From NCBI RefSeq assembly GCF_988242995.1, contig NZ_OZ547043.1: a stretch of 64,000 bases of DNA; one strand, given 5' to 3'. Numbering within the stretch: position 1 is the stretch's first letter; every line of letters starts with the position of its first letter. Shown one piece after another: positions 5,823 through 6,541 of the stretch. Position numbers and translations under genes: made by a program. Under the pieces are notes generated by a model. It made no database searches. It saw nothing but the letters and a program-made list of their open reading frames with translations, and was not told where the DNA came from.

Positions 5823-6541
5823 ATGCAGCTAACAGGAACTCTTGTGGTCATCGGTCCTTTTATCAACGCAAGTGCAGTATTACTGGGTGGCGTTCTCGGT
5901 GCACTCCTTAGTCAACGCTTACCGGAACGTATCCGCGTCTCCATGACATCAATTTTTGGTCTGGCATCGCTGGGGATTGGTATTTTACTGGTGGTGAAAT
6001 GCGCCAACCTTCCGGCGATGGTTTTAGCAACCTTACTCGGTGCATTAATCGGCGAAATGTGTCTGCTGGAAAAAGGCGTCAATACCGCGGTCACCAAAGC
6101 ACAAAATCTGTTTCGCCACTCACGTAAGAAGCCAGCGCATGAATCTTTTATTCAGAATTATGTCGCGATTATTGTCCTGTTTTGCGCCAGCGGCACCGGG
6201 ATCTTCGGGGCGATGAACGAAGGGATGACCGGCGACCCGAGTATTTTAATCGCCAAGTCATTTCTCGATTTCTTTACGGCGATGATCTTCGCCTGCTCGT
6301 TGGGTATTGCGGTGTCGGTAATTAGTATCCCATTACTGATACGCTGGCGTGGGCTGCCGCGCTGATATTACCGCTGACCACACCGTCGATGATGGCAGAC
6401 TTCAGCGCCGTAGGCGGTTTATTGCTGCTGGCAACCGGATTACGCATCTGTGGCATTAAAATGTTCCCGGTGGTCAACATGCTTCCAGCACTCCTTCTGG
6501 CAATGCCGCTTTCCGCCGCCTGGACCGCCTGGTTTGCCTGA
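5823..6541 (+). pseudogene. yqgA: yqgA (DUF554 inner-membrane protein) apparently disrupted by a frameshift near 6340
   Basis: Frame 1 ORF 5823-6365 ends prematurely (…IPLLIRWRGLPR*); the expected C-terminal continuation (TLAWAAALILPLTTPSMMADFSAVGG…AWTAWFA*) is encoded from about 6341 to 6541 in a different frame. Confidence 0.55.

Follow-up and report, generated by a model that had tools for sequence, protein, structure and literature searches.

A 10-bp deletion splits the reading frame of yqgA next to pheV in a small set of Escherichia coli lineages

The yqgA locus and its interrupted reading frame

The window analysed here is a stretch of 64,000 nucleotides from contig NZ_OZ547043.1 of NCBI RefSeq assembly GCF_988242995.1, which carries yqgA (5844-6541, plus strand) between speC and the tRNA gene pheV. 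K-12, SMS-3-5, PCN033 and all further genomes that were inspected show this gene order, with yqgA at its orthologous position between speC/yqgH and pheV. The small protein gene yqgH, with 27 codons, lies between speC and yqgA in related genomes annotated by PGAP, and maps to 5608-5691 on the minus strand of the window. The only tRNA located by ARAGORN in the window is tRNA-Phe(GAA) at 6647-6722 on the plus strand, which is pheV and the attachment site of an island that occupies the window from 6723 to 64000. Judging from ORF sizes and from the annotation of strain AST20, on which these assignments rest, the island contains a P4-type integrase gene (6920-8185), IS66/IS110 debris, an Ag43-type autotransporter gene (19203-22124) and a yeeS/T/U-cbtA module. 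On the same grounds, a group-2 capsule cluster is present, with kpsFEDUCS at approximately 33568-41563; next come capsule region 2 and kpsTM, and after these the gsp genes for type II secretion.

The reading frame of yqgA is broken in this genome. An ORF that begins at 5823, in frame with a GTG codon at 5844, ends at a TGA codon at 6363-6365, and translation thus bears out the initial annotation, which had the frame stop at 6365. Counted from the GTG codon, this 5' part of the gene (5844-6365, plus strand) comprises 166 native residues followed by seven out-of-frame residues (RWRGLPR). The intact protein does not naturally end at this position, given that intact YqgA has 235 amino acids. Its C-terminal portion is encoded in a second frame, -1 relative to that of the start, which is open from 6326 to 6541 and from 6341 onward reads TLAWAAALILPLTTPSMMADF through to AAWTAWFA and a stop. 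The 3' remnant proper (6341-6541, plus strand) translates as TLAWAAALILPLTTPSMMADFSAVGGLLLLATGLRICGIKMFPVVNMLPALLLAMPLSAAWTAWFA followed by the original TGA, with no earlier stop codon; its 66 codons correspond to residues 170-235 and match the C-terminal end of intact YqgA with 100% identity, as had been proposed for the region from about 6341 to 6541. Protein alignment accordingly places the 5' ORF on residues 1-166 of YqgA and the other frame, without a mismatch, on residues 170-235.

The cause is a single gap. In DNA alignments with the intact alleles of K-12 MG1655, PRO_A-1429 and A25, the 10 bp CATCCAGTTA are absent between positions 6340 and 6341 (plus strand), and the junction, which is also recovered by the probe described below, can be placed unambiguously and has zero microhomology. 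The earlier suggestion of a small indel near 6340 therefore proves accurate to the base. The missing nucleotides encode part of I167-Q168-L169 within the stretch LLIIQLTLAW, and they reduce the true extent of the gene to 698 nt, compared with 708 nt for the intact gene. Relative to intact orthologues, the gap and the premature TGA at 6363-6365 together constitute a disabling lesion, and no uninterrupted ORF spans the whole DUF554 domain (approximately 235 amino acids), the frame being broken after residue 166. The deletion leaves pheV, which begins 306 bp further downstream, unaffected.

Two routes to such a lesion were considered and rejected: slipped-strand deletion between direct repeats, because of the unambiguous junction with zero microhomology, and phase variation or homopolymer error, because no run of at least four identical bases is present near the site. 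A weak imperfect inverted repeat, TTACTG...CAGTTAA, can be discerned by eye across the deletion site.

The start of the gene requires a correction. The ATG codon at 5823, from which the gene was initially taken to begin, is ATA in K-12 and A25, so that the in-frame ATG is lineage-specific. The GTG codon at 5844 and the AGGA sequence at 5834-5837, 6 nt upstream of it, are invariant in five alleles, and the coordinates that PGAP assigns to the pseudogene in LH10-b-1 map to 5844-6541 of the window, with the start at 5844. GTG 5844 is thus the conserved start codon of yqgA, rather than ATG 5823. A promoter scan of 5500-6900 returned no strict match to a sigma-70 promoter.

Both pieces are recognized by the Pfam profile for DUF554 (PF04474), whose cut-off is 25.1 bits. 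The 5' ORF scores 157.7 bits over profile positions 1-158 (E = 4e-46), and the remnant scores 58.1 bits over positions 163-219 of 220 (E = 1.2e-15), whereas an intact YqgA allele scores 226.4 bits over positions 1-219. Because the two pieces cover successive parts of one profile, they represent a single gene that a frameshift has divided, as opposed to two ORFs that are adjacent by chance. With its frame broken, yqgA in the window is a pseudogene of the DUF554 family and is predicted not to be a functional member.

One junction in 43 complete genomes

To place the lesion among relatives, a 951-bp probe (window 5700-6650) was searched against 5,426 complete E. coli genomes. It matched 5,424 of them, with at least 80% of the probe covered in 5,421, and yqgA is thus otherwise nearly universal. 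The 43 best matches all have at least 99% identity and span 951 bp; among the non-carriers listed, nearly all span 961 bp, the exceptions being A25, with 952 bp, and H40, which matches only in part. A shorter probe of 70 bp, with the deletion junction at its centre and searched against the same genomes, is 100% identical in exactly 43 (0.8%), the same 43 that were found with the longer probe. A further 4,066 genomes match this junction probe at 80-90% identity; in the alignments listed for this group, identity is 87.5% and a 10-bp gap is present. No genome among the 5,426 matches it at 90-99% identity, and independent origins of the deletion on other allelic backgrounds were rejected for this reason. 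A single junction on a single allelic background points to one mutational event.

The carriers come from many laboratories and hosts. Among them are SMS-3-5 and PCN033, outbreak strains of O166:H15 from Japan, and isolates from Switzerland, Norway, France, China, Mozambique, Tanzania, Korea and Ecuador. The window itself is 100% identical over the 951 bp to 19 carriers (LH10-b-1 and 18 others). In all 16 carriers that were inspected, PGAP labels yqgA as a 'frameshifted' pseudogene, and in this sense the lesion is already known, since the same allele is annotated as frameshifted in RefSeq. In the literature naming yqgA that was examined, we found no discussion of this pseudogene.

These data settle a question that the initial annotation had raised, namely whether the broken frame is a genuine pseudogene or a sequencing error. 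If the window contained a sequencing or assembly artefact, yqgA would really be intact. We give this reading next to no weight, because the identical junction is present in 43 complete genomes that were produced by many laboratories in many countries and years, because the window matches 19 of them perfectly across the 951 bp, and because the loss of 10 bp from non-repetitive sequence that has no homopolymer of at least four bases would be an untypical platform error. Sequencing error is therefore excluded for the allele as shared by these genomes. It is the pseudogene alternative that stands, and the claim that the gene is inactivated gains support both from the recurrence of the junction and from the PGAP label.

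Several other features of yqgA sequences emerged from the same searches. Over the region that corresponds to window 5700-6650, 2,656 genomes are only 90-95% identical to the window, which makes yqgA unusually divergent for an E. coli core gene. The yqgA gene of strain A25 (L004, 3145-3843) has a separate 9-bp in-frame deletion near its C-terminus, at a location equivalent to 6515-6531 of the window, that changes AAWTAWFA to AAWFA. This deletion sits at two 8-bp direct repeats, CCGCCTGG, and the A25 gene is still annotated as intact. H40, which is NZ_CP077585.1 (O111:H8 strain 7-32 9A), matches only 56% of the yqgA probe, at two places in the record, a pattern that suggests an independent interruption of its yqgA, possibly by an insertion.

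The pheV island and the spread of the deleted allele

The initial annotation implied a tie between the loss of yqgA and the neighbouring island, and it is reasonable to consider whether the deletion might be collateral damage from island integration or excision. The distance of 306 bp from the attachment-site tRNA and the mosaic character of the region, as described below, would fit such an event. However, the carriers differ in the island that they harbour. In SMS-3-5 and LH10-b-1 the deletion is located beside a pheV island whose integrase has 394 aa and which also encodes a LacI-type regulator, an alpha-galactosidase and an MFS transporter. In the window, PCN033, O166:H15 and EC0026B, the neighbouring island has instead an integrase of 421 aa, accompanied by IS66/IS110 debris. 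Ag43 cargo accompanies the 421-aa integrase and IS66 in the window, PCN033 and O166:H15.

Conversely, TOE51 has the start of the island with the window-type 421-aa integrase at pheV, yet its yqgA is an intact gene of 708 nt. PRO_A-1429 also has an intact yqgA, with an integrase remnant and IS26 at pheV, and between its sequence and the window there are zero differences across 5911-6722 except for the 10-bp gap, such that the spacer and the tRNA gene that separate the deletion from the island are unchanged. Furthermore, P4-type integrases integrate site-specifically at the 3' end of a tRNA gene and not upstream, which is where the deletion lies. The presence of two different islands beside the deletion, and of a window-type island beside an intact yqgA, leaves the implied link unsupported. 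The yqgA deletion is independent of the pheV island, and we regard collateral damage by the island as very improbable.

Two further observations concern the island and its surroundings. No complete genome matches window positions 6723-30000 in one piece, the best matches having 98.9% identity in three to seven pieces, and the IS arrangement in the window is therefore a distinct variant. In TOE51, nupG (L009, 6657-7001), two genes from the intact yqgA, is annotated as frameshifted.

The sequences to the left of the deletion are informative with regard to how the allele might have spread. Carriers are nearly identical from approximately 5111 to 6722 and differ by up to 53 SNPs further left in the region from speC to pheV. 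In the window, LH10-b-1 and O166:H15, speC resembles that of K-12, with three SNPs over 3311-5710 including the spacer, and at approximately 5711 there is an abrupt switch to a yqgA-pheV block that has 42 differences from K-12. Other carriers of the deletion have the same yqgA block combined with different speC alleles. From this pattern, the speC-pheV region (3311-6722) is a recombination mosaic. Both the abruptness of the change in allele from speC to yqgA and the variety of speC alleles among carriers are compatible with recombinational spread of the deletion, although they do not constitute proof.

SMS-3-5 is usually placed in phylogroup F. A possible, albeit rather unlikely, scenario is that the deleted haplotype was exchanged through homologous recombination in the vicinity of the pheV hotspot, between lineages of phylogroup D (O166:H15 of ST349) and of phylogroup F (SMS-3-5 type), and was kept because the loss of the biofilm-associated YqgA is neutral or mildly useful. 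The assignment of O166:H15 strains to ST349 and phylogroup D is taken from published work (PMC7500659, PMC9686507).

Probable loss of YqgA function and the place of the allele among E. coli pseudogenes

YqgA is a conserved inner-membrane protein of unknown function that remains uncharacterised. We found no PDB chain that matches it, and a hydropathy scan indicates that the break falls at the end of its strongest hydrophobic segment (148-166), with the remaining hydrophobic C-terminal third lost. According to a review that cites Hancock and Klemm 2007 (PMC8882828), yqgA is up-regulated in urine biofilms and mutants are affected in biofilm formation. A screen for altered epithelial-cell interaction and biofilm yielded a Nissle 1917 mutant with a transposon in yqgA (PMC4366286), and yqgA is among the CRP targets from a genomic SELEX screen (PMC3105977). 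In several other papers, judging by their titles, the gene figures as a landmark of an island boundary.

The coding sequence of the deleted allele differs in its substitution pattern from that of intact alleles. The 16 carrier sequences compared (from the total of 43) form three main haplotypes, one with a further variant. The window-type haplotype equals the intact PRO_A-1429 allele minus 10 bp, with the rest of the coding sequence identical; the SMS-3-5 type adds G117D; and the EC0026B type adds T129I and A200T, to which E300010 further adds A235T. Residues 117, 129 and 200 are in the ancestral state in four intact alleles, and A235 is ancestral in the three of these that are full-length (A25 lacks 9 bp near the C-terminus). 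All four coding changes that followed the deletion, which affect both the 5' ORF and the remnant, are non-synonymous and none is synonymous, whereas the four intact alleles differ among one another by 34 synonymous and four non-synonymous changes (Fisher's exact p = 6e-4). Among random changes 75% are expected to be non-synonymous, and the carrier count is small, with four events on two or three branches.

This shift in substitution pattern is what relaxed purifying selection after the lesion would produce. The preponderance of synonymous change in intact yqgA implies that the encoded protein, whose function is unknown, is strongly constrained, and the deleted allele appears to have escaped that constraint. 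To judge from these substitutions, yqgA in the carriers looks dead rather than shortened but working.

Two ways in which the carriers might nevertheless retain function deserve consideration. The first is that the shortened or split gene still works, either through the 173-aa fragment alone or through this fragment together with a C-terminal piece such as the one encoded by the 50-aa ORF at 6389-6541. Both pieces are open, the remnant has no internal stop, and an ATG codon occurs 24 nt after the premature stop, which makes reinitiation conceivable. However, none of the start codons in the remnant frame has a Shine-Dalgarno-like motif ahead of it, the break interrupts the conserved domain DUF554 between positions 158 and 163 of its profile, and the exclusively non-synonymous changes, despite their small count, argue against a functional truncated or split protein. 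The N-terminal 173-aa fragment could retain some activity, but we consider continued function of the shortened or split gene to be quite improbable.

The second possibility is that programmed ribosomal frameshifting restores full-length YqgA. The required shift is -1, and it would have to occur within the overlap of the two frames at 6326-6362. The 5' ORF is devoid throughout of canonical slippery heptamers (X_XXY_YYZ), and runs of at least four identical bases are absent near the junction and from the overlap. Moreover, approximately 99% of E. coli genomes encode YqgA in one frame and the two-frame layout is found in only 0.8%, which indicates that the frameshift is a recent lesion and not a conserved recoding site. 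We therefore assign almost no likelihood to programmed frameshifting.

By far the most probable explanation is that the core gene yqgA is present in the window as a loss-of-function allele that is both genuine and inherited, caused by a single 10-bp deletion and unrelated to the pheV island. On this reading, the deletion arose once on a yqgA haplotype of the phylogroup D/F type and shifted the frame after residue 166, which removes approximately 29% of the protein, comprising the last third of DUF554 and roughly three C-terminal hydrophobic segments. A few lineages have since shared the deleted allele by descent and perhaps also by homologous recombination, and it is presumably now decaying neutrally; the pheV tRNA gene and its integrated island had no part in the lesion. 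We infer that carriers make no functional yqgA product, and we view recombination as a candidate route of spread.

In practical terms, the appropriate label for yqgA in this genome is that of a pseudogene, in place of two ORFs or an error, and the pheV island should not be held responsible for the loss. The lesion is real but ordinary, and has little importance beyond correct annotation. Even so, the junction left by the 10-bp loss has a single origin, cleanly marks a small group of genomes (43 of the 5,426 complete ones) and could serve in typing. Natural yqgA-null lineages could also help to work out what this core membrane protein does, given that it is uncharacterised and that biofilm phenotypes have been reported for it.

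The window gene is readily compared with known counterparts. It shares both its family (PF04474/DUF554) and its locus, speC - yqgH - yqgA - pheV, with K-12 YqgA (b2966), and its surviving codons are 98-99% identical to K-12 YqgA at the protein level; K-12 yqgA, however, is an intact ORF of 235 codons, whereas the window gene lacks 10 bp and is broken in frame after residue 166. A second counterpart is the RefSeq pseudogene 'DUF554 domain-containing protein; frameshifted' (for example, ECSMS35_RS15685 in SMS-3-5 and NLZ08_RS04265 in LH10-b-1), which has the identical deletion junction and does not differ from the window at the lesion, the carrier types being distinguished only by the additional substitutions given above (G117D in the SMS-3-5 type, T129I and A200T in the EC0026B type). 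More broadly, it belongs with the lineage-specific pseudogenes to which core genes of E. coli and Shigella are reduced in ordinary decay through small indels: it too has one small out-of-frame deletion, which related genomes have inherited and which relaxed constraint has followed. The yqgA gene of the window is no different in kind from these ordinary pseudogenes, and its position beside a tRNA island hotspot is coincidental.
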